A DNA stretch of 46,465 nucleotides. Origin: an uncultured virus (IMG/VR IMGVR_UViG_2061766007_001087) (lineage: Duplodnaviria; Heunggongvirae; Uroviricota; Caudoviricetes; Schitoviridae). The DNA lies in IMG/VR virus record IMGVR_UViG_2061766007_001087; one strand, given 5' to 3'. The notes under the pieces are model-generated. The model saw only the letters and a list, made by a program, of their open reading frames with translations, was not told the DNA's origin and did not search any database. The position numbers and the translations under genes are program-made. Positions 2,922 to 46,465 of this stretch are shown one piece after another. Position 1 is the stretch's first letter, and each line of letters begins with the position of its first letter.

Positions 2922-3990
2922 TTGATTCACACCATATTTCAGTACCATCAGGTAATACTAAATGTCCCTGAGAATTATATCTAGGTATCTTACCTGCTTC
3001 ATTTGCTACTTCAGAAGTTTCTACATAATCAGACATATCTGGTAAATCAGAAGAAGTAAGGAAGTTAGATGAATAATTAGCTAAAGTACTTTCAAAGTTA
3101 CCTGTAGTAATTAAATCAGAGATATTAAATAATACTTTATTACCAGCACATACGTAATTCATCCCACTATAAGGATTTGTATATCCTAAAGGTTGATAAG
3201 GCAAAAGATAAGATATTTTTTCATAATCACCTGTAGGAGAAGGTATATCTATCTGATAGAAGGAAGTAGTACCNNNNNNNNNNNNNNNNNNNNNNNNNNG
3301 TGATTCAATTAAATCAGTACTAATTAATTCACTTGCATCTCCAGTAACTACATTCTCTGGTAACTCAACAGGTGTACTAGGAGTACTTGGTTGTATACTG
3401 GAAGATTCACCAGAACCTCCGGTAACTACAGTAGAATTGATTGCAGGAAGAATCTCAGTAAATGTTTGTTCNNNNNNNNNNNNNNNNNNNNNNNNNNNTA
3501 CTGTAGTTGCATCTACTACAAATATATTATTACTATCTACAGTAATTTCTCGAGAAATGTTTCTATCTTTGGAGTAAACCTTAAATTTACTGATATCTCT
3601 TATCTTAGGTAACAGGAATGTATATACCAGATAACTTACTGTACCATCTTGATTTGGTACTTCTATCGTATCTTTATAATAGAATCTGGTATAACTGAAG
3701 TCTCCCATAATATGGGTAGCAAGTATCTGCATATCTTTAATACTTCTTGGGCTATATCCCAGTGTATCCAGATACTCTTCTCTGAAAGATATGCCATAGT
3801 AGTTACTGCATTTAAATGCATTAGTAAAAAACTCTGGTTTCTTGTCCAGAGCATACAGCATATCTCTTAAATTCATTAACTCAGGTAATCTCTGATATAC
3901 CTCTTCCACAATAGCAAAAGCCGTATTAGGAAGGTGATGGTGTACCAAATTAGAGAAACCTGTTACTGATGGTATAGGCATTATATCCAA
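2914..3990 (-). CDS. Putative tail/virion protein
   Basis: 358-aa ORF coupled to both neighbours, with an S/T/P-rich linker. It occupies the position of tail genes downstream of the gp67-like gene in N4-like phages. Confidence 0.5.
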   Translation of the reverse strand: MDIMPIPSVTGFSNLVHHHLPNTAFAIVEEVYQRLPELMNLRDMLYALDKKPEFFTNAFKCSNYYGISFREEYLDTLGYSPRSIKDMQILATHIMGDFSYTRFYYKDTIEVPNQDGTVSYLVYTFLLPKIRDISKFKVYSKDRNISREITVDSNNIFVVDATTVXXXXXXXXXEQTFTEILPAINSTVVTGGSGESSSIQPSTPSTPVELPENVVTGDASELISTDLIESXXXXXXXXXGTTSFYQIDIPSPTGDYEKISYLLPYQPLGYTNPYSGMNYVCAGNKVLFNISDLITTGNFESTLANYSSNFLTSSDLPDMSDYVETSEVANEAGKIPRYNSQGHLVLPDGTEIWCESNE

Positions 3991-21006: not shown

Positions 21007-21469
21007 AGCATTAAAACATGAATCTAATAATACAAAAGTGTTAGAAATATGTTCTAACGCTTTATACACATTAAAAAACTATAAGGAAATGGAATAAAAT
21101 GCCTAAAATAAAATTTAAAAATATAGTAGAGATAATGTCAGAAAAGAGGATATGCGTATATATCTATAATCCTACTAGAGTTTCACCAAAGAATTTTATC
21201 AATGATAAAAGTTTATTTAAGTTATTATTAACTAAATACGACAATTACTATGTAGACCAGTTNNNNNNNNNNNNNNNNNNNNNNNNNNNNNNNNNNNNNN
21301 NNNNNNNNNNNNNNNNNNNNNNNNNNNNNNNNNNNNNNNNNNNNNNNNNNNNNNNNNNNNNNNNNNNNNNNNNATCAGGTAGCAACTCTAACTAATATGA
21401 AATCAGCAGATGATTTAAGGAAGTTAGCTAGCACTATTTATTACTTAGAAGAATTAAAGGAATTAAAAA

Positions 21470-25209: not shown

Positions 25210-26425
25210 NNNNNNNNNNNNNNNNNNNNNNNNNNNNNNNNNNNNNNNNNNNNNNNNNNNNNNNNNNTTTCCAGTAAATCAGAGATTATTCTTACTGGTA
25301 CTCCAGGTACTGGTAAGACCTTCTTTCTGGCAGAGTTCTTAAAATCCTGCTCAGAGGATATTAAATCTTTAAGAGAGATAGGTCTTAATGTAAAGATTAA
25401 TTCTTTGATTTGTACTGCTACTACTAATAAAGCCAGTAATCTCTTAAGAAAGGCTAAAACTATTTATACACTTCTTGGTTTAAAACCAGTAATTGATAAG
25501 ACTACTGGTATGACCTATCTGGAGAAGTGGCAGAATGTAGATAGAAAGGATACTCTTTATATCATAGATGAAGCCAGTATGATTAGCAGTGACTTGTATA
25601 AATATATCCAGGAAGAAATAAAGAAAGGTAATAAGTTTATGTATGTAGGAGATATTAATCAGTTACCACCGGTAAATGATAATAACTTCTCTGTATTTAA
25701 TTTACCGAATCTGGAAGTACTGGAGTTNNNNNNNNNNNNNNNNNNNNNCTCTGCTGATTTACAGGGTCTTATTATTGATATAAGAGATAATATGAAATGT
25801 CCTAATGCTGTTATTAGTCTGTTAAATAATTTAAAGGATTCTGAGCATATTCATATATTGAAAGGTGAGGAAGATGTAAAACAGGTATTAGAGAATTTTA
25901 CTAATTATGATAAGTGCATAGCATATACCAATAAGAGAGTAAATAAGATTAATGGATATATGAGAGCACTTAGGAAAATGCCAAAGAACATTAGTTCAGG
26001 TGACCTGGTAGTAAGCAAGTCTTCTGTATGTAACACAGATAATGGTTTTAGACTGTGCTGTGAAGATGTACTTACTGTTAAGTATATAAAGCAGGATAGT
26101 CGTAATCCAGGTGCATATCTTATTTCATTTTTGAATGTTCCAGGAGAGTTCCACGGGTTTAATGATGTATATAAGTATGATACAGAATGTAAGAGAATTT
26201 ATGCAGAATGTAAAANNNNNNNNNNCTAATTTTAGTGATATGTATCTGAAATTGAAGTTCTCCTATGCAAGTACTGTACACAGTGCTCAGGGGAGTACCT
26301 ATAATAAGGTATTTGTAGATTTAACAGATATTAACTCCTGCAATGATATAGAGACATTTATCAGATTGATTTATGTTGCTATAAGCAGAGCCAAAGATGA
26401 GGTGTATATTTATTATGGAGACTAG
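25210..26425 (+). CDS. Dda/RecD-like SF1 DNA helicase (start in N-run)
   Basis: GTPGTGKT, TATTNKA, IIDEASMI, VGDINQLPPV, YASTVHSAQGST, YVAISRA. Confidence 0.92.
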
Positions 26426-28262
26426 GTATTTACTGATTAAAGAGTCATTAATTATTACAGAGAACATTAGATACTATTATTTTGATAATGGTGTTAGTCC
26501 AGATGTACCAGTAGTACCATTAAAATATGTACAAGATAAATTTAAAGCAAATGAAGCAAAGATGTATTTGCAGGATTTATTAAAAGACCTGCATAGATTA
26601 GGTGCTACTAAGTTACTGGTATGTGATGCAAACTATTTTAAATTAATGACTGGTCAGAAAACTATAGAATTTTCCTATGGGCAGGAGTTCTCCTGTAAAA
26701 TAGGTAACTATAGTTTTAAAATAATACCTGGTATAAACTATAAAGCAATTTCATATAATCCAGAATTACTTAACAAGTTACAGTTATCTATTGATAAATT
26801 TAATGATGTTAATCAATCATTTGCTAATATAACCAGAATAGGAGTTACTGATGTTAGAAAATCTCTGTTATCTCTGCATAATTATAGTATGCTTACCGTT
26901 GATATTGAAACTACTGGGTTATGTTTTTATCTTCATTCTCTCTATAGTATTAGTTTCTCGTGGAGTAACAGANNNNNNNNNNNNNNNNNNNNNNAAGGAC
27001 AAGAAGAAGTTTTAAAAAATTTCTTTGATACTTATCAAGGTAAACTGGTATTCCATAATTCCTCTTTTGATATAAAGTTTCTTATTTATAAGTTGTACAT
27101 GAAAGACATTAATGACCAGGAAGGATTACTTACTGGTCTACATACTCTCTGTAGGAATTTTGGAGATACTAAGATTATTGCATATTTAGCATTAAATTCT
27201 ACTGGTAAACCAGATTATGGATTAAAGCATCTGGCATTACCTTATGTAGGTAAATATGCATTAGAAGATATAAATGATGTTACTAAGGTGCCTGTAGATG
27301 ATTTACTAAATTATAATGTTACAGATACTTGTGCTACCTATTGGGTATATGAGAAATATTATCCAAAGATGGTAGCAGACAATCAGGAGAATATATACAA
27401 TACTTTATTTTTACCTAGTCAGAAAGTACTAATTCAGACTGAATTAACTGGAGTAAGACTAAATCCAACAAAAGTAAAAGATTTTAAACAGAGTGTACAA
27501 GATGCAATTACTGAAGCGGAGAACTATTTAAATAGTNNNNNNNNNNNNNNNNNNNNNNNNNNNNNNNNAGAACTAGATAAAATTAACAGTAAATTAAAGA
27601 CTAAAGTAAAGACACTGGAAGATATTAATTTTAAGATTAATTTGAACTCACACTCTCAGATTGCTCATTTGCTTTATGAAGTAATGCTTCTACCAGTAAT
27701 TGACTATACAGATTCAGGTAAGCCTTCCAGTAGTAAAGATACTATAGAGAAGTTATTAGAAAAGAATACTAATCCAGAATATACAGATATATTAAAGAAC
27801 TTGGTAGAACTGCAAAAGGCTTCTAAAATCTTTTCGGATTTCATCCCTACTATGGAGAATGCTTTCAATGAAAGAATTTTCGGTAGTTTTGTTCTAGGTG
27901 GCACTATATCTGGTAGGTTATCCAGTAAGGAACCAAATCTACAGAATATGCCTTCTACTGGTACTAGTTATGCTAAAGCATTTAAAGCCTGTTTTGATTA
28001 TAGAGATGGGTGGATTATGGTAGGCAGTGATTTTAATGCACTGGAAGACCATATTAATGCATTATTAACTAAAGACCCTAATAAACTGGCTGTATATACA
28101 GACGGGTACGATTCCCATTGTATTAGAGCATTCAATTATTACGGTGACCAGATGCCAGATATAAGACTAGCAGTAGAAGGAGATGAGTGCTGGGTAGAAG
28201 AAGATAAAAATGGACACAAAGAGTATTTTTGTAAACACGGAGACGAGGTATTTAAAGTATGA
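26415..28262 (+). CDS. DNA polymerase family A, N-terminal piece (3'-5' exonuclease, thumb, motif A)
   Basis: VDIETTGL, FHNSSFD, YNVTD, GTISGRLSSKEPNLQN, motif A GSDFNALED, YDSHCIRA. True TGA stop, not next to Ns. Confidence 0.92.
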   Translation: METRYLLIKESLIITENIRYYYFDNGVSPDVPVVPLKYVQDKFKANEAKMYLQDLLKDLHRLGATKLLVCDANYFKLMTGQKTIEFSYGQEFSCKIGNYSFKIIPGINYKAISYNPELLNKLQLSIDKFNDVNQSFANITRIGVTDVRKSLLSLHNYSMLTVDIETTGLCFYLHSLYSISFSWSNRXXXXXXXXGQEEVLKNFFDTYQGKLVFHNSSFDIKFLIYKLYMKDINDQEGLLTGLHTLCRNFGDTKIIAYLALNSTGKPDYGLKHLALPYVGKYALEDINDVTKVPVDDLLNYNVTDTCATYWVYEKYYPKMVADNQENIYNTLFLPSQKVLIQTELTGVRLNPTKVKDFKQSVQDAITEAENYLNSXXXXXXXXXXXELDKINSKLKTKVKTLEDINFKINLNSHSQIAHLLYEVMLLPVIDYTDSGKPSSSKDTIEKLLEKNTNPEYTDILKNLVELQKASKIFSDFIPTMENAFNERIFGSFVLGGTISGRLSSKEPNLQNMPSTGTSYAKAFKACFDYRDGWIMVGSDFNALEDHINALLTKDPNKLAVYTDGYDSHCIRAFNYYGDQMPDIRLAVEGDECWVEEDKNGHKEYFCKHGDEVFKV

Positions 28263-28769: not shown

Positions 28770-29117
28770 TATGGAGAGTCAAATGAAGTATGAAGATGAA
28801 CGTGGTATGGTTAATTCTGTAAATGTATATACAACAGAAGAAACTGAATACTTTGATAAGTCTGCCCAGATAGTTATTAATATGAATNNNNNNNNNNNNN
28901 NNNNNNNNNNNNNNNNNNNNACATAAGTATACGAAACTATAATGAAAATTTTGATCAGTTTTATAGTACAGTAGGTGATATACAAAATAGTAGAATAAAA
29001 GATTTGGTACACGAGTATGACAGAGAAAGTGAGAAGAGACGTAACAGTACAACAGTTCAATGTGCAGATGATAAACTCAATAAAGAAGAAGTATCCAGCA
29101 CTGAGACAGGCAAGTAA
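28770..29117 (+). CDS. Second insert ORF (or C-terminal part of the first), overlapping the pol-C start
   Basis: MESQMKYEDERG... then after Ns ISIRNYNENFDQFYSTVGDIQNSRIKDLVHEY...ETGK*. Confidence 0.45.
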
Positions 29118-29742
29118 AGCTCCTACCTTTGCTCTTACTTATGCTGGTACTGCACATACTCTGGTTAATAACTTAGGTATGGAAGAAGAACAAGCCAAAA
29201 AAATAGAAGAAAAATATCATGAAATGTATAAAGTATCTGATGAGTGGGTTGCTGAAAAGATACAGCAGGCTACTATAGATGGATACGTTACCTGTGCTTT
29301 TGGTTTAAGGTTACGTACTCCCCTATTAAAGGCTACTGTACTCAATACTAAAAACACTCCTAAAGAGGCTATAAAGGAGGGTAGAAGTGCAGGTAATGCA
29401 CTGGGTCAGTCTTGGGGACTGTTAAACTGCAGAGCAGTAAATGAAGTAATGCAGCAGGTATGGAACAGTCCTTACAAGAATGATATTAAGCCAATAATGC
29501 AGATACATGATGCCAGTTATTATTTAGTAAAAGAAGATTTAGATGTTATCTGTTACTTAAATAATATACTGGTTAAAGCAATGGAATGGCAGGAAGATCC
29601 TGCTATTGCACATGACCAGGTAAAGTTAGGTGGTGACCTGGATATATATTATCCTGACTGGGCACATCCTATTACAATACCACATAACATTACACCAGAA
29701 GATTTATTTACTTTTTTAAAGGAAAAAACAAATGGACATTGA
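29017..29742 (+). CDS. DNA polymerase family A, C-terminal piece (motifs B and C)
   Basis: Motif B RQASKAPTFALTYAG, GYVTCAFGLRLR, AGNALGQS, motif C QIHDASY. Confidence 0.92.
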   Translation: MTEKVRRDVTVQQFNVQMINSIKKKYPALRQASKAPTFALTYAGTAHTLVNNLGMEEEQAKKIEEKYHEMYKVSDEWVAEKIQQATIDGYVTCAFGLRLRTPLLKATVLNTKNTPKEAIKEGRSAGNALGQSWGLLNCRAVNEVMQQVWNSPYKNDIKPIMQIHDASYYLVKEDLDVICYLNNILVKAMEWQEDPAIAHDQVKLGGDLDIYYPDWAHPITIPHNITPEDLFTFLKEKTNGH

Positions 29743-37203: not shown

Positions 37204-40200
37204 TTACCAAGGTAAATTACTAAACCAAGCAAAGAATTTAAATGCTGGTAACTGGTTACTAGAATCAAATACCGAAGTAATAGGGTTCTTAATGTTATAT
37301 AAGTTCTTATCTATATTTAGTAGATTAGATGTAAGTATTGCACCATCCGTTAATGGTNNNNNNNNNNNNNNNNNNNTGCTCTAGCAAACTTTCTAGTAAA
37401 CAAATGCAGTATAGGCATTTGAGTTCTTAATATGAACTTACTAAACCAAACTACACCTAAGTCATTAGCTGCCTGTGTAACTTTATTAGTTGGCAGGTCA
37501 TAGTTAATAAACATCTCCTGTGCATCCAGGAATGCATTAGTAGCATTCTGTTCATTGATTCTACGATCTCTGCTTTGTGGATACTTCTTTTCTCTCAGAT
37601 GAGTGTAGTATATCCATTTAGCTACTGTATCCGTACCTGTAGCAAGCTCCTGTGCCATGTCATATAGTTTAGTATTATGACGTATAAAGAGTACATCCAG
37701 TATAGGAGTTAAGCGTCTAAATACACCTGCATCCATTCTACTATTATCCAGGAATTTAAGTTCATCTGGTAATGGAGAAGGCTCTTCTCTGTTAATATCA
37801 TACTCACCACCTACTATAGAAGTAGCACCACCTAATCTAATAAATTCACTCATTGGGTTATTCTGTATATCATTTTGCAATGAAGTAAATTCACTTCTTA
37901 ATGCTGCTCTTTCATCTGCAGTTAATTCTTCTATATTTAGTCTAGTAAGTATATTACGGAATCTCCTCATTTTATCATTGTAGTCAGTGTAGTATTCGTA
38001 TCCTTTAAGTGTTTGTGATATAGCCTTTATTGGGCTAACTCCAGCAATAGACAATACTTGAATATTACTTCTTATATTGTTAAGAGATACTATAAAAGAT
38101 TTATTTACNNNNNNNNNNNNNNNNNNNNNNTTGCCTGTGTACGTAATCCCCACTTTTGTGCAAATATCTGATATGCAGCTTTTTTCAGGATATGTAAGCA
38201 TCTATCTCCATAGGCTTTATATTCCTCTGTACCTGGGTCCATCAGTCTTCTAAGAGAGAAGTTATGGAAACCAAATATAAGATTATAATAGTCTTTCTTT
38301 ATAAATAGATGTTCACCACCTAATCTTTCATGCAGGTACTTTCTAGTATCTTGTGGTAAAGTACTGTAGTCTTCCTGTACTACTGGATTCTCTGAATCTG
38401 GTGAAAGTTCAATCCATTCATCTTCATCATAGTCTTTATCAGTTCTGTGATTATGAATATCTATTAATGCATCAATCATGTTTCTATTGGCTGCAAAGGA
38501 AACTTGTTTTTCTTCAATGTTTGCTGCAGTTGCTGCAAGANNNNNNNNNNNNNNNTTTAATAGTTTTTCTCTCAGTTCCATTGAGTCTACAAATCTGATT
38601 GCCTTTGTTACACCTTTAGAATCAAATCCCAATTCACGGGCAAGTGATTTATTTGGAGTAATAGGTAATATAGTATCAAACTGGTTATCAATAGGAACTG
38701 CAGCCATATAGTTTTCTACTGCTTCTTTTTCACTGATTAACTCTGCACCAACAAAGTGAGTATCAATAGTAGCCAGTGCACCAGAAGTATGCCTATTAAC
38801 TACTGGTACTGAATTGTGCATAAGTTTAGGTGTAAATCCTAGTTTATTAGGTACAAATCCTGCTGTCTCTGGACCAGTATATACTACATATCCTTTTTGT
38901 TTTAAATCTTCATATGTAGCTTCATCATTTACTATTATTGATTCATNNNNNNNNNNNNNNNNNNNNNNNNNNNNNNNNNNNNNNNNNNNNNNNNNNNNNN
39001 NNNNNNNNNNNNNNNNNNNNNNNNNNNNNNNNNNNNNNNNNNNNNNNNNNNNNNNTGAATCAAAACCAGTAGATTTATGAGCTGCTCTCATAGCAGCAGC
39101 ATTAGTTTCTACTCGATAGAGTTCCTGTAGAGTTTGTAAATCTTCCTGGTTTGCTTCCTGCTCTCTGTATAATTTCATTGCCTGTAAGGTAATATAGGCA
39201 TTTAACTGAGATTCTACTTGAGCCTGTTCTTCCGGTGAAGAATGCTTAAGTAATACTCCGTTGTATTCTGTACCAAAACCTAGAAGAATCTGAGCAGCAT
39301 TATGTAATGTTATCTCATTACTCCAGGAATCAGTAGCCAGTTTACATGCAAGGTTGTTTGCAGCATTAATTACAAAGTTAGTATAGTTACTCGGTAATTC
39401 AGGTATATTTAATATAGGATTATTTACTACTGCATCATTATAGTACCGTAAAGTATCATCTAAACCTACTCCAGTAGTAAGCATACTCATTATCTGTTGG
39501 TTATTGTAACCTACATTTTTTAAGCACTGTAAATCAAGTATACATACACCATTTCTAATTGCTCTTGCCATTGGTTCAGTAAGTTTATTAGCAAATGAAC
39601 CTAAAAGAACTCTAGTATCTTCAGTCAGATTTTGCTGTCTGGTTCTATTAAGAGCAGANNNNNNNNNNNNNNNNNNNNNNNNNNNNNNNNNCTTCCATCT
39701 TTAGAGTAGTAAGAGTTAGTTACTTCATTTAAGGTTTCCCTAGTAAACCTATTAACCTTCTTTAATACTCTTTCTAAACGATGTCCAAATGCCTGTACTC
39801 TTTGTGCAACAGGTTCTCTTCCTATTTCATCCAGATGCATAGATACACCAGTATCAGTAGTATCTAAAGTTCTATCTAATACTGTAGATAATCTATCTAT
39901 TGTTTGTCTATATGGAATTTGGAAGTAATCTTTTTCAGTCTTGTTTGCTGCATCAAATACTGCTTCTACTGTATCCATTAAACTAGGAGTTACATTAACT
40001 GTATTCCGTTTAAATTTATTAGATGCTTTTTGTAATAAAGTAGATATAGCAGTTGAAATGAAATCTATAAGAGCACCAAGTACACTTCGAGCAGTATCTT
40101 TATCATTTACATTGGTTAAATGACCTTTTACATATGGAACTTGACTTAATGCATTATTAATAAATTCATTGGTATATGCCAGTACTGCAAACTCTTCTAT

Positions 40201-43200
40201 TACATCATTGGATGCAGTACCTTCTGCTCCTGTACCAAACATATAATCATACATTACTTGTGCATTAGCATCTTCTCTTGCATTAGCCTGGTCTGCTAAA
40301 TCCTGACTACCCAGTTCTGCTGCTGTCCAGTTATGCTGTCTGAGTAAATGCATATTATCAGCAAAGTATTCTCTTGCCTGTACCCAGGATCTACGAAGTG
40401 TCTTGAATTCTGGACTATACCTATCTACTGCCTTGAATACAATATGCATATTCTCATGTGCATACATCTCTCGAACACTCATAGGTATACCATGTTGTAT
40501 TGCATCTCCAACACTTCTGGTTATTGCTACTACTTTATTTGAAGTAGCAGCTAAACCTGCTCTACCATGATTTACTACCAGTACTTTTACACCAGCAAGC
40601 ATATCTGCTATTTTTTCCATACGTCCTCTAAGAGTATTGGAGAACTGTGGACTTATAGCACGAATAGTACCTACACCAGATGCAGTATTAACTGTAACAG
40701 TACTTTCTAATGCATCAAAGTTTCTTAATACTTGATTCTTAGTATTAGTTACTATTGTTTGTACTGCTGGGTCACTGATAGGCTGGTTATTAATAGCAGC
40801 TATCATTGCAGAGCGTAAGTCTGCATCTTCTCTGGCTCCTGCATTATTGTGCCTTTCATCTTTACCTGCTGTACGTAAATCCTGTGGAAGTACATTTTTC
40901 CATTCATTAAATTTAGCTTTATAAGCTTCTTTTACACCTTGTTTAAATTGATTGAATACATCTAATGCATCTCTTTGTTTTTGTTTCTTACAATGAGCTG
41001 CAAGGTCATTATTATCTGTAATAGCAATTAAATTAATAAATGGAATACCATAGGCAGGTCTATCTTTATCTGTTGGATTTTGCTTTTCTTCCAATATACC
41101 CATTGCATGGTTAGCAGTATTAGTTAGCTCACTTATTTTTCCATTTGTGCCAATAGAGAGTCTCTGGATTTCAGCAATAAAATCATATGGGTTAGTGCTG
41201 GCTAAAGTTTCATCAAAGTCTAAATCTGCATTTTTTACATAGTAAGGTAACGCCTCAGCTATTTCATCTAATACACGATTCTTCTCTGTTTCAGATAATT
41301 CATTAAATGCCTTTGGAGGATCGTCTTTATCCACTCTTTTATGGTAGCGGATCTTAGGTGCTTTATCTATTGGATATACATCTTCCAGCATATAGTCATT
41401 AATTTCTATAAGCGAAGCCAGTGCACTCTTGGTTTCATTATATGGAGTTTCATTTGCTTTCCCATATAATTCAGCTATATTCTGCCTATTTTTAACCCTA
41501 TATCTAGGCTGATTATAGGTATCCATTAACTCATTACCTTTAAATGCAATACCCATATTGTACTGGAATATAGAGTAATCTCCAGAATGGAAATCCTGCA
41601 TAGCTTTTAAGTGCTCTTCTTCTGCTCCCTGAATAAGTTTAAGCATATGATTAAACAGTGTGTTATGTACTTCAGGATTCTGGAATATAGTATTAAATAT
41701 GTTATTACGCTGGTCCATATTAAATAAGGTAGCACCAGCTCTATACGCTTCTTTAGAGTCAGTTCTAACAACTTGTTTATAGTTAGCTAATTCTCTTTTA
41801 CCTGTCTCATAGTAAGTTTGAGTTTTATCATTAGCGAGTATACCATTATAGGCTTCTTCATCAATAGAGGCATATGGGTTGTATGCCTGCTTAAAGAACT
41901 CTATAAACTTACTCTGCATATCTGTTAATACAGCACCAGTTTGGTCTTCAATAGTACCATCTGGTAAATAGAGTGTACCTAAATCACTTTCCAGATTTAA
42001 TACATCATGATAGTCTGCTCCTGGATGCTCCTCTATATAGTAACCAATAGTAGCATACAGAGCAGAAGTAATTGCTTTGTTATACAAACCCATATGGTAA
42101 CTATAAGATTTCTTATGCTGATCTGGCATTAACAGCATACCTCTAGCAGACTCTATACAAGCATTATAGAATCCATCATTAAACGCCTGTCTGATTGCTA
42201 TCTTAGTCCATCCCAATCGTCTAACTAGTTTTTCTGTATTGTAGTACCACTGGTTAATTGTAGATTCATCTTTATCTTTAGAGTCTATTTCTTGATATAC
42301 TCTATTACCATCTTCATCTGTAGTTAATTCAACACCAAGATCTCTTAATGTTTTACTAGTAATAAGACCCATCTGTGCTGCTACAGCAATTACATTTGCA
42401 CGGTTATATTTGTTATCTAAATTTACAGTTAATTCCGTACTAAGGTCAACATTAAGTATCTGACTATACTTAGCAAACAATGTTGCATAGTTCTTGAAGA
42501 AAGATGCATATTGTAAGTACCTAGATTTAGCTCCTGGATTTGCTATTGAATTAAGGAATGCCTTATTCTGTAAACGATTAAATACAAATGCCATATGATT
42601 ACACAACATTTCTGCAGCATCGTGTATATTCAGTGGCATCGTACCAGTTTGCTGTAATCCCTCTAATGCAGTATCACTGGCTATATTAGAGTCATTGCTC
42701 TGAATACCATCTACTGTTAAACTAATACCAGCACTGTTAGTAGAAGCAATTCTACCACTGCCTGTTACTACTACACCATTGGTATCAGTCATACGTAATG
42801 GATTATTTAAATCACTTTCGTACTCCTTCTTAAGTATAGATATACCCTCTCCAGAAGGAAGATTTAACTGAGACTTATTAAACAGAATATTAAAGGATTC
42901 TACCAATGCTTCTTTAATATCTANNNNNNNNNNNNNNNNNNNNNNNNNNNNAATTAAAGCGTCATTACGTTTTAAAATTTCCTGGTAGTTTATGTTACTA
43001 AAGTTAGCCAGGTAATCTTCCTCTACTCCTGCCTCATTCTGGATTGTTCTAATCCTATAATTTAATGGAGTTTTACCATTTAAGATATTCTTAAAGGAAT
43101 CTGCCATAAATGAGAGTATTTCCAATGGAGCAATACACATTTGAGTCATTGCTCTATTATTACCCATTGGTTTCATCATAGATTTAAAGATTGCTTGACC

Positions 43201-46200
43201 TATAGTATTTTCAAACAGAGGAATAATTGCATGAGTTAAATCATAGATATTCTCTGAAGTAAATCCTCTAGAATGGTCATATCCTTTCTCAAAGTTCTCT
43301 GCATTACGTTCTGTATACTTAGAACTCTTTGTAAAGATATCTTTAATTTCTACTGCATCTACATAAGCCTGTGCACAGTTACCCATTGAGAAATTCTTTG
43401 CTTTAGGGAACCCTGATTTACCAAGTACTAAGTCAAAACTACCATTCTTATTTGTAGCAGTTCTTTGGCTACCCAGGAACTTAGTATATACCTCAGCAAA
43501 CTTAATAGGATTTTTAATGTACATCAGTTTTAACCGATGACCTATTCTGGCACCTACTGGATTAGTACCATCTTTGTATTTAAAAATATCTTTCAGTAAG
43601 CTAAGAGGAAATACCTCTGCAGTAAGGAAATCTTTATTTTCTTCCTGTATCTTATTATCTCTTGCAGCTCGTTTAGCTTTTACTATATTAAGCATTAACT
43701 TTCTGCCTTCCTTGGAAGAAGATAAGTAATACTTATTATGGAATTTAATTACATGTGCTGAGTAATTTAATACAGGAATACCAGCAGCCTTAGCTTCTTT
43801 TACTACAAGTCCATTATCTCCTAATGCATTAGGTACAGTAACTAAATCTACATTTTTAATTACCGGGTTACCATTACTATCTTTACCAGGAGAATAAACA
43901 GTATCAGCCATATAGTATGCCTGACTACACTGTACGTACTGAGTAGTACCACTCTTGGTTATATAATTATCTCCTGTTTTACCAGTAAGCATATCAGCAG
44001 GTTTATAGTAAGTACCATCCTGGTTCTGTCTAGGCTGAAACAGGCTTAATACTTCCTGACTGCAATCAAATATATAAAGTCTTCTAGATTCTCTTTCTCT
44101 TGCTTCTGCAGTGTCATATGGTTNNNNNNNNNNNNNNNNNNNNNNNNNNNNNNNNNNNNNNNNNNNNNNNNNNNNNATTTATACGATTATATGCTTCTGC
44201 AGTATTGATAAGAGTCTCTATACCGTTATCTCGTTTATCCGAATTAAACTGGAAATAGCTCATTATAAAGTTAGCTATTTCTATTTGCTTGGCTTCAAAT
44301 GCAGTAACATCTTTCTCACCTTTAATAACCTTCTTCCATGGAGTATTACTAAAGTTAATTTTAATAAATNNNNNNNNNNNNNNNNNNNNNNNNNNNNNNN
44401 NNNNNNNNNNNNNNNNNNNNNNNNNNNNNNNGAATTTACATCCAGCAATATGTGATATTGCCTGTGGAGTATATTGTGATACCTGTGGATTATAGTCTTG
44501 ACCAATAACAGTATTGAGTAACTCAGTACTATATGAATTATCTGGATGTAGTAAATCNNNNNNNNNNNNNNNACTATTAAACAAACTAGTATCATCACTA
44601 ATACTGTAAGTTTTACCTTTTGGTGCAAAACCAGGACGTATATTAGAGAAACTAGTAGAGTATTTACCCAGTGCTACACAACTAATAGCATTTAAGATAT
44701 ANNNNNNNNNNNNNNCTGATTATCTAATTTACTTAAAGATTCATATAGTAACTTTCTTGGTTTAGCTGCATTAAAGTTATTCCAATCAAGTTTACTGTTT
44801 ATTTCTGGTTTTTGATTTAATAAATTAATTACCTCTTCATAGGTATTTAATTCTGGTAAGTTTTCTTCTGGTGCAGATGCTCTATACTCTTTATACATAT
44901 TAACCCAGAGTTGTCTTACATCAGTAAGTTGCTCCAGTTTTTTCTGCATAAACTGATTAAAATCATTTAAGCCTAAATCATTATCCAGAAATTCCTTATA
45001 CTGGTTCTCTACCCATGTAAACCAATATGGAGCACTTTCTTTATTGTACTTATTAAACTGAGCTTCCATATGGAAAGAGGCTACCAGTTTATTAGCAAAT
45101 GCTTCCAGTGCCTTAGGTCTTGCTGTTTCAGATAAGTTACCTTCAAGGCTGTTCATTAAAGAAGTAAGTAAATAAGGTAATGCATAGTTTCTTACATGTG
45201 CTTTGATATTACCCCAGAATTCCCACTTTGGTACTACTGTATTCTCTTGAGAATAGTAACTATCTTCAATGCTATCCTGGACTTCTTTAAATTTCTTAGA
45301 TAATGTGAATGCTCCTGNNNNNNNNNNNNNNNNNNNNNNNNNNNNNNNNNNNNNNNNNNNNNNNNNNNNNNNNNNNNNNNNNNNNNNNNNNNNNNNNNNN
45401 NNNNNNNNNNNNNNNNNNNNNNNNNNNNNNNNNNNNNNNNNNNNNNNNNNNNNNNNNNNNNNNNNNNNNNNNNNNNNNNNNNNNNNNNNNNNNNNNNNNN
45501 NNNNNNNNNNNNNNNNNNNNNNNNNNNNNNNNNNNNNNNNNNNNNNNNNNNNNNNNNNNNNNNNNNNNNNNNNNNNNNNNNNNNNNNNNNNNNNNNNNNN
45601 NNNNNNNNNNNNNNNNNNNNNNNNNNNNAAACGCTTAATAGGGCACTCAGTACCGTTAATTTTAGTGTCTAAATTAAAATCTGATATTGAGTCCATTGTA
45701 CAGAGAATATCTAAATCTATATTTGCTTTAATAGTTTCATATAAGTCCNNNNNNNNNNNNNNNNNNNNNNNNNNNNNNNNNNNNNNNNNNNNNNATTTTC
45801 CAGACCACCATTTAGTCTGGCAATACCAATACTATCCAGGAAGTTATAACCATCTACTTCTGGTACATTTAATCCCTGATTTTTAATATAGGATAATATA
45901 CCAAGAGTAAATAACACACCCATTGCAGGACCATTGGTTACACCATCTGATTCTATGTGCATGTAGTTAACATACTTACCATTTTCCAGAGAATCATCTA
46001 ATGCTTTCCAGAATTCATCTACTGTACAGTTTTCTGGTATTTCTGCATTTGCAAACTGCTCCATAGTCTGCATTATATTAATAATGGCAAACTTATGTTC
46101 AAACTCGTAACCCTTAGATTCCAGATCCTCAATGCACTTTAACCAAGTATCTAACTTTGTATCATAGTCTTTAGCAGCTTTACTCTTTTTAGCAGCATCT

Positions 46201-46465
46201 ACCAGAATACGTACTGCGGTCATCATTTTCCCGTTCTTGTACCAGGTTTGTAATGTACCTTTTTTTTCTGGTTTTAATCCAAGATTCTGCATTATTCCAA
46301 AGGCGAATATATCATGTTCTGATANNNNNNNNNNACTAATTTATTTTCTATTGCTGTTTGTTCATTAAACCGCATAACCTTTGTTATATTAGGATTTGCA
46401 AGCACACCCAATAATTTATCTAACTCTGCTTTGGTTTTCTCTGCATCCTGTATGTACTCAGGTGT
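37204..46465 (-). CDS. Virion-encapsidated RNA polymerase (N4 gp50-like), 5'-truncated by the window
   Basis: Track ORFs 45717.., 44692.., 44114.., 39625.., 38105.. and 37350.. link across N-runs into one reading of about 3080 codons ending FSNLPW* at 37204. Motif A IESDGVTNGP (about 45946), motif C LNIHDA (about 42620), zincin HENMH...EEF and C-terminal FINYDLP...NDLGVVWFSKFILRTQ. Convergent with dut, as in N4-like genomes. Confidence 0.9.

Follow-up and report, generated by a model that had tools for sequence, protein, structure and literature searches.

A giant predicted virion RNA polymerase gene in a divergent N4-like phage, with a large fingers insertion between catalytic motifs B and C

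The window analysed here, a stretch of 46,465 nucleotides (nt) from an uncultured virus of the Schitoviridae (IMG/VR record IMGVR_UViG_2061766007_001087), ends on its right-hand side in ~9 kb that encode the C-terminal portion of a single, exceptionally long gene on the minus strand, whose stop codon lies at 37206-37204 (-). Judged by its C-terminal domain, its motifs and the synteny of the region, the product is predicted to be a virion RNA polymerase (vRNAP) of the type found in phage N4, and the assignment of two Asp-bearing motifs in it as catalytic motifs A and C of such an enzyme, within one gene, is supported by sequence comparison. The unusual distance between these motifs is the subject of this study. 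The original prediction had placed the motif A Asp at about 45946 and a motif C-like Asp at about 42620, on the minus strand, and both codons lie where it put them; its reading of the gene as an N4-type vRNAP is likewise borne out by motif, profile and C-terminal-domain evidence. The closest relative, a protein of 6001 amino acids (aa) designated P0003, is 78-85% identical to the window's product in the core and 45-72% identical in the inserted region described below.

Catalytic motifs and corrected gap sizes

The features on which the identification turns are as follows.

45795-46322, minus strand: palm piece with motif A, 82% identical to P0003 2870-3045
45956-45927, minus strand: motif A, IESDGVTNGP, with the catalytic Asp codon at 45947-45945
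45631-45747, minus strand: piece between motifs A and B, ending in ...CPIKR, 77.5% identical to P0003 3066-3105
45318-45628, no strand assigned: gap predicted to hide motif B; its P0003 counterpart (3106-3261) contains motif B
42732-42691, minus strand: pre-motif-C block AGISLTVDGIQSND (AGISLTVDGIQSNDSNIAS), with SNDSNIAS at ~42700
42639-42607, minus strand: motif C, MPLNIHDAAEM, with the catalytic Asp codon at 42621-42619; invariant in all four sequences
40444-40458, minus strand: HENMH, an HExxH motif in the C-terminal domain
37204-39658, minus strand: C-terminal domain through the stop codon, with phrog_2206 matches at E 9e-8, 7e-15 and 5e-32

The piece carrying motif A additionally gives a weak phrog_2206 match at profile positions 1448-1470. 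Word-index searches recovered three relatives, in each of which motifs A, B and C fall within one open reading frame (ORF) and motifs A and C are invariant.

P0001 (3593 aa): motif A D782, motif B K938, motif C D1777; A-to-C distance 995
P0002 (4384 aa, cut by the contig end): motif A D3311, motif B K3465, motif C D4316; A-to-C distance 1005
P0003 (6001 aa): motif A D2995, motif B K3169, motif C D4170; A-to-C distance 1175

Motif B, with the pattern Rx3Kx7YG, is present in all three relatives (as R..IKGPATQG.YG), and the window's counterpart would fall in an N gap. In P0003 its residues are R3165, K3169, Y3177 and G3178, lying within the 100 residues that match 304 hidden bases of that gap; the original prediction that motif B would sit in the gap just after ...CPIKR agrees with this placement. 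Upstream of motif A, the T/DxxGR and NPQ block lies beyond position 46324 of the window, and the relatives show it as GxNSRF...NPQADKEFTRQ, with the Gly replaced by Ser.

The corresponding motifs of N4 gp50 are EADGVTNGP (D1556), RGIAKNPLTITIYG (R1663, K1667, Y1675) and KIFDG (D1948). As mini-vRNAP starts at residue 998, D1556 and D1948 are its D559 and D951, and this numbering confirms the 392 aa that had been quoted for their separation; the structure of the N4 mini-vRNAP, or Pol domain, is PDB 2PO4 (PMC4496689). The order of motif A (E[AS]DGVTNGP), the pre-C block and motif C is that of N4 gp50, as is the position of motif B (Rx3Kx7YG) between A and the pre-C block in the relatives. The spelling of motif C also recurs in the family, as NIHDA in LIT1 and as VHDA in five others, among them D456, pYD6-A, VBP47 and phi50-12, which have it in the same column, and these vRNAPs share a pre-C S.D[AS] block 20-25 residues before motif C.

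These assignments were examined with hhalign, comparing the clade with a profile of 10 Schitoviridae vRNAPs; the E-values are single-template values. The motif blocks are collinear with the Schitoviridae profile. The whole polymerase region aligned with a probability of 94% (E 1e-7), with motifs A and B correctly paired; a low-stringency run across that region lost register beyond motif B and paired motif C wrongly, and local runs were used instead. In these, the TxxGR/NPQ block reached a probability of 91% (E 1e-6), motif A matched N4 1546-1568 (EADGVTNGP; E 1.5e-4), motif B matched N4 1662-1709 (probability 88%, E 2.8e-6), and the pre-C block together with motif C (P0003 3961-4198) matched N4 1781-1974 (probability 64%, E 6.7e-5), pairing the P0003 motif C residue D4170 with N4 D1948. 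The C-terminal domain aligned with a probability of 99%.

Comparison with T7 RNA polymerase by eye places P0001 VHSQDSGIAS...NIHDA beside T7 VHSQDGSHLR...LIHDSFG, and motif B of the clade matches T7 RSVTKRSVMTLAYG; 275 aa separate D537 and D812 in the T7 enzyme. Since hhalign gave no match when the clade was compared with T7 as a lone sequence, we take this likeness to hold at the level of motifs only.

The distance between the two Asp residues had to be read through a fragmented scaffold. The window contains 74 N-runs, and the reading frame shifts at about half of those within the vRNAP gene. Nevertheless, all 13 non-N segments between 37377 and 46465 are stop-free in one minus-strand frame each, and all 13 match P0003. 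The true gap sizes were taken from contigs of four public runs placed on 42600-46465; these runs represent three samples from three studies, all labelled bovine or bovine gut metagenome, and two of the four may be the source of this DNA, the other two, from other samples and studies, being ~96% alike. The corrected gaps are as follows.

45749-45794: 46 N in the window, true length 62
45318-45628: 311 N in the window, true length 467 nt, made up of 304 hidden bases, a 131-nt piece (46335-46465) and 32 bases
44702-44715: 14 N in the window, true length 21
44558-44572: 15 N in the window, true length 33
44370-44431: 62 N in the window, true length 41
44124-44176: 53 N in the window, true length 88
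42924-42951: 28 N in the window, true length 40

The window thus misstates the lengths of the six short runs by -21 to +35 bases, and that of the 311-N run by 156 bases. In all four runs the contigs pass from 45317 through 32 bases to 46335-46465, and then through 304 bases to 45629. Because these joints recur in all four, the proper place of the window's final 131 bases is within the 311-N gap, and the protein comparison gives the same placement, with this piece matching P0003 3206-3248 directly after motif B. The right end of the scaffold is mis-ordered. The frames across the window's other N-runs are probably unreliable too.

With the contig-derived sizes, the frame is kept across all nine junctions from 46322 to 42921. 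The nominal Asp-to-Asp distance in the window is 3326 nt (1108.7 codons), 529 nt of them N, which agrees with the ~1100 codons first proposed; the corrected distance is 3549 nt, exactly 1183 codons, with all pieces in one frame. Correcting the gap sizes leaves the motifs in place and the figure revised upwards. Against this, N4 has 392 aa between the same residues, and all 10 of the diverse Schitoviridae vRNAPs compared have 355-442 aa. The distance from the motif B Lys to motif C is 249-281 aa in all 10, as against 839-1001 in the window's clade, which sets the excess between motifs B and C, as had been proposed. The comparison set was drawn from phage records, the vRNAPs compared besides that of N4 being LIT1 gp71 and those of D456, VBP47, phi50-12, pYD6-A, DFL12phi1, TR2, OLIVR1 and 98PfluR60PP; a search seeded with N4 returned at least 120 proteins, which shared 71% identity or more with N4 and were too uniform for the purpose.

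The fingers insertion

The inserted region and its surroundings are distributed over the following pieces.

46335-46465, minus strand: misplaced scaffold piece encoding TPEYIQ...ENKLV, the insertion's first 43 visible residues
43231-45315, minus strand: insertion body, with four gaps; together with the end piece ~763 codons
43765-43920, minus strand: AYYMADTVY...GIPVLN, the best conserved block of the insertion; GIPVLN and its flanks are invariant in all four sequences
42640-43230, minus strand: resumption of the conserved fingers, with the helix block AIIPLFENTIG...PMGNNRAMTQMCIA, the stretch equivalent to the specificity loop and the pre-C block AGISLTVDGIQSNDSNIAS; 84-85% identical to P0003

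The boundaries were set by hhalign at about P0003 3210 and at 3961. The clade departs from the N4 alignment at approximately N4 1709, corresponding to P0003 3209, just after ...HPIGGIFTTF..KIN, and the alignment resumes at N4 1781, corresponding to P0003 3961 and to the codon at 43230 of the window, with AIIPLFENTIG. In the window's phage the insertion accordingly spans 2289 nt, or 763 codons, in place of ~70 N4 residues (1710-1780), a net gain of ~690 aa. The site falls within the Pfam N4_RNAP_helical region (N4 1616-1832), in the fingers, between the helices of motif B, which it closely follows, and the helix leading to the specificity loop. The original prediction had spoken of the fingers or specificity region: the fingers are correct, and the specificity loop is not the place, for the loop-equivalent stretch just before the pre-C block keeps an N4-like length in hhalign, so that the insertion lies upstream of the loop and outside it.

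The insertion is found at the same site in all four known members, the window and the three relatives. Its identity to P0003 is 45-62% over the first two thirds and 72% over the last 300 aa, and it contains no stop codons. Between the sub-lineage of P0003 and the window and that of P0001 and P0002, BLAST aligns nothing in the first 500 residues, and the last 250 residues, which include the invariant GIPVLN block, align at 25% identity (E 4e-5). The insertion has evolved faster than the core while remaining under constraint.

Searches with the insertion found no match in Pfam, PHROGs, NCBIfam, PDB sequences (phmmer and profile) or the ESM Atlas; the insertion alone gave no match to the Schitoviridae vRNAP profile in hhalign (best E 0.3), and BLAST detected neither an internal duplication of it within P0003 nor a match to it in the rest of that protein. 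The block AYYMADTVY...GIPVLN (43765-43920), which had been described as Rossmann- or SLOG-like, had no match in Pfam, PHROGs, NCBIfam, the ESM Atlas or PDB. An AlphaFold2 model of window 42952-44121, built from a 4-row alignment, had a mean predicted local distance difference test score (pLDDT) of 33.3, with ~30 in the GIPVLN block, too low to be usable.

There is precedent for additional modules within the core of a single-subunit RNA polymerase without loss of activity, in the plug and palm insertion of N4 (PMC4496689, PMC13434306). The N4 plug is ~85 aa long and lies between TxxGR and motif A (PF21624, N4 1456-1538); the insertion described here is about nine times its size and is located after motif B.

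The rest of the protein, its lineage and its genome

The Schitoviridae vRNAP C-terminal domain is homologous to that of the window's protein (phrog_2206), P0001 matching this family at E 6e-107. An HExxH motif was found in all 10 Schitoviridae vRNAPs checked, and it is described for subdomain C1 of N4 (PMC13434306). As in N4, this HExxH-bearing domain is encoded in a gene that lies beside those for a resolvase, SSB, Sak4 and a primase. The vRNAP gene is convergent with the resolvase/SSB genes, and the gene order beside it is the same as in Vibrio phage D456. More generally, the gene content of the window is N4-like: besides the two subunits of RNAPII it includes a DNA polymerase, a primase, a helicase, an exonuclease and an ATPase, together with a terminase, a resolvase, SSB and Sak4. 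N4-like Salmonella phages have DNA polymerases 40% identical to the one found here. The latter is represented by two ORFs, at 26397-28259 and 29017-29739, which match consecutive parts of phrog_17 (518-1057 and 1056-1251); the ~750 bases between them hold a 167-aa ORF without matches and three N-runs, and the interruption may represent either an intervening element or a gap artefact.

The vRNAP departs from the norms of its family in the compactness of the core, in length, in Cys content and in its relation to the Pfam Pol-domain models. The comparison vRNAPs are 3024-3584 aa long, and the 3500 aa of N4 contrast with ~6000 aa here, the closest relative having 6001. The vRNAP gene extends beyond position 46324 of the window. 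The residues before motif A number ~2995 in P0003 as against 1556 in N4, and those from motif C to HExxH 718-728 in the relatives as against 280 in N4. Because these N-terminal and C-to-HExxH regions are enlarged as well, the fingers insertion is one of at least three expansions. Cys residues number 29 in P0001, 30 in P0002 and 23 in P0003, with none in N4, and the visible pieces of the window also contain Cys; the absence of Cys from the N4 vRNAP has been linked to its passage through the tail and periplasm (PMC3821669). In P0002, residues 2203-2356 resemble DprA and nucleoside 2-deoxyribosyltransferases, that is, a SLOG-type domain, with a phrog_768 match at E 8e-10 and a weak one to Pfam PF05014 at E 0.045; this stretch hints that enzyme-like domains may have been added to a predicted injected protein.

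A partial parallel is offered by the Alteromonas phages AltAD45, in which a vRNAP-like protein is split into products of 1404 aa and 2481 aa (PMC3821669). Like the present lineage, these represent a divergent N4 relative departing from the 3500-aa, Cys-free, single-chain vRNAP; unlike it, their summed size is normal, and the part of PMC3821669 drawn on mentions no large core insertion. Among the papers listed by narrow literature searches there was no vRNAP with such an insertion or of such a size, which falls short of proving that none exists.

Public data contain very few members of this lineage. A HMMER pass over 1.84 billion representative proteins returned only P0002 and a C-truncated protein, P0006, and no relatives were found among IMG/VR (two scans) or JGI metagenome contigs. 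A tblastn search of 50,697 phage records with a 1476-aa query matched 27 Vibrio phages, all of them in the HExxH stretch only. Near-identical or ~96%-alike contigs for 39692-42923 and 42600-46465 occur in bovine or bovine gut runs. As matching contigs come from four runs, three samples and three studies, the phage recurs in cattle-gut samples; this habitat inference uses those four runs only, and runs X5-X20, which held small shares of the words, were left out.

Alternative readings and possible role

Taking these findings together, we consider it probable that the window carries one giant vRNAP gene of a divergent N4-like phage, with an intact T7/N4-type core and a ~763-residue insertion in the fingers. 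Several points weigh against this conclusion. For the short blocks hhalign gave moderate probabilities (51-91%), based on three clade sequences. Motif B and all the gap letters are not visible in the window, for which reason a stop codon inside a gap is formally possible, though unlikely. The Pfam models for the N4 Pol domain (PF21867, PF21624 for the plug, PF21894 for the helical region, and PF21769) miss the clade: P0001 and P0002 gave no match to any of the four at E up to 10, and the window pieces none at E up to 1, whereas N4 matches all four. An AlphaFold2 model of P0001 660-1859, again from a 4-row alignment, had a mean pLDDT of 33.8, and at a mean of ~33 it gives no usable view of how motif C would pack beside motif A. 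A second Asp inside the insertion is conserved in all four sequences (P0003 D3502; FHDANF in P0001; SISDDT in the window). Finally, the data bear on sequence and not on function, and the ranking of roles given below is judgement, not measurement.

One alternative accepts the insertion and assigns it a specific purpose. A 19-nt sequence, AATAAAATTTCTCNNTAG(A/T), occurs in 11 plus-strand copies between 7072 and 13101, with a degenerate 12th at 21107; each of the 11 lies 35-60 nt upstream of the ribosome-binding site and ATG of a small plus-strand ORF, before the RNAPII genes, and by its sequence and placement this early-region motif is promoter-like. A hairpin of 7-9 bp is found at or just after the motif in ~5 of the 11 copies, the others having none. 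The insertion could then be a promoter-recognition or DNA-opening module, with transcription starting at a linear 19-nt motif and not at N4-type hairpins, a view to which the disposition of the copies upstream of early ORFs, the scarcity of nearby hairpins of at least 7 bp and the place of the insertion lend themselves, the N4 fingers being known to contact promoter DNA (PMC4496689). Other observations tell against it: the insertion lies outside the specificity loop, whose region keeps its N4-like length; any of three polymerases could be the one that reads the motif; a small inverted repeat, TCT...AGA, lies within the motif and makes a hairpin form possible; the first 500 aa of the insertion cannot be aligned between the two sub-lineages; and a scan of IMG/VR for the motif returned 16 loci with one match each, which we took as chance. 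We regard this reading as unlikely, and its more specific form, in which the insertion is a built-in DNA-recognition and DNA-opening module for a virion-delivered polymerase acting on a linear duplex promoter marked by the 19-nt motif, as somewhat less likely again. If true, it would free the phage from the supercoiling-driven hairpin extrusion and the host SSB required by N4, and it would give injected polymerases a novel means of locating the promoters they use first.

Other explanations deny the spacing itself. The A-to-C distance could be an artefact of separate genes or of a chimeric scaffold, as the 74 N-runs, the frame breaks at about half of this gene's gaps and the one misplaced piece might suggest, and P0001, which begins only 781 residues before motif A, implies that gene splits occur upstream in the lineage. 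Yet the nine junctions all close in frame once the gaps take their contig-derived sizes, the contigs of all four runs, which cover three samples and include a contig of 20,840 nt from run X3, show the pieces in this order, and the three relatives, which come from other sources, carry motifs A, B and C in one ORF, making an artefact very improbable.

It could also be held that NIHDA is not motif C and that the true Asp lies ~470-510 residues after motif A, at a near-normal spacing. The HDA tripeptide of P0001 at 1254-1256, 473 aa after motif A, and the second conserved Asp noted above would be the candidates. The context of this Asp varies among FHDA, FHDN, SKDA and SDDT, and the segments that contain it gave no match to the Schitoviridae profile (best E 0.8); NIHDA, by contrast, is invariant, is accompanied by the pre-C block and a following QN.AF block, and aligns with N4 D1948 and with the NIHDA/VHDA of cultured Schitoviridae, leaving such a reassignment with very little probability. 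The two findings that had been named in advance as fatal, a motif C about 400 aa after motif A and pieces belonging to separate genes, were both looked for, and neither was borne out.

Large insertions beside polymerase motifs are often inteins, and an intein or other self-removing mobile element would restore a normal spacing in the mature protein, but this is the least probable reading of all, given that no Hint, LAGLIDADG or HNH matches were obtained (E cut-off 10 for P0001 and P0002, and 1 for the window pieces), that the junctions read KIN|T/S on entry and TH|A or EL|V on exit, where an intein would begin with Cys/Ser and end with His-Asn plus Cys/Ser/Thr, and that all four members carry the insertion at one and the same position, diverging as a host-protein domain does.

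Returning to a single giant vRNAP with a fingers insertion, we propose that the inserted sequence forms one or more separate modules that would protrude from the fingers, leaving from a loop already variable in length and keeping catalysis intact; as all core residues are kept, the enzyme is presumed to be active. The enlargement of the protein at three places suggests a general accretion of modules, which could serve packaging or ejection or be injected cargo. Among the possible roles, our tentative first choice is an extra surface for DNA or for a partner protein in early transcription. It is slightly less plausible that the insertion supplies further "beads" for the packaging and ejection of a polymerase grown at three places, and an injected accessory or effector domain seems improbable. 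[quoted passage not shown]

Single-subunit RNA polymerases are usually compact, and the virion enzyme of N4 is a model for the threading of a protein through a phage tail. In the lineage described here, the catalytic core would tolerate, at one site in the fingers, an insertion approximately the size of the whole T7 RNA polymerase, and the whole vRNAP can reach ~6000 residues and contain Cys, a size and composition that strain current ideas on which proteins can be packaged and ejected. As this rare lineage recurs in cattle-gut samples, material for tests should exist. If the module binds DNA or a partner, the site would be a permissive one for engineering, and the enzyme might reveal a new use of early promoters.

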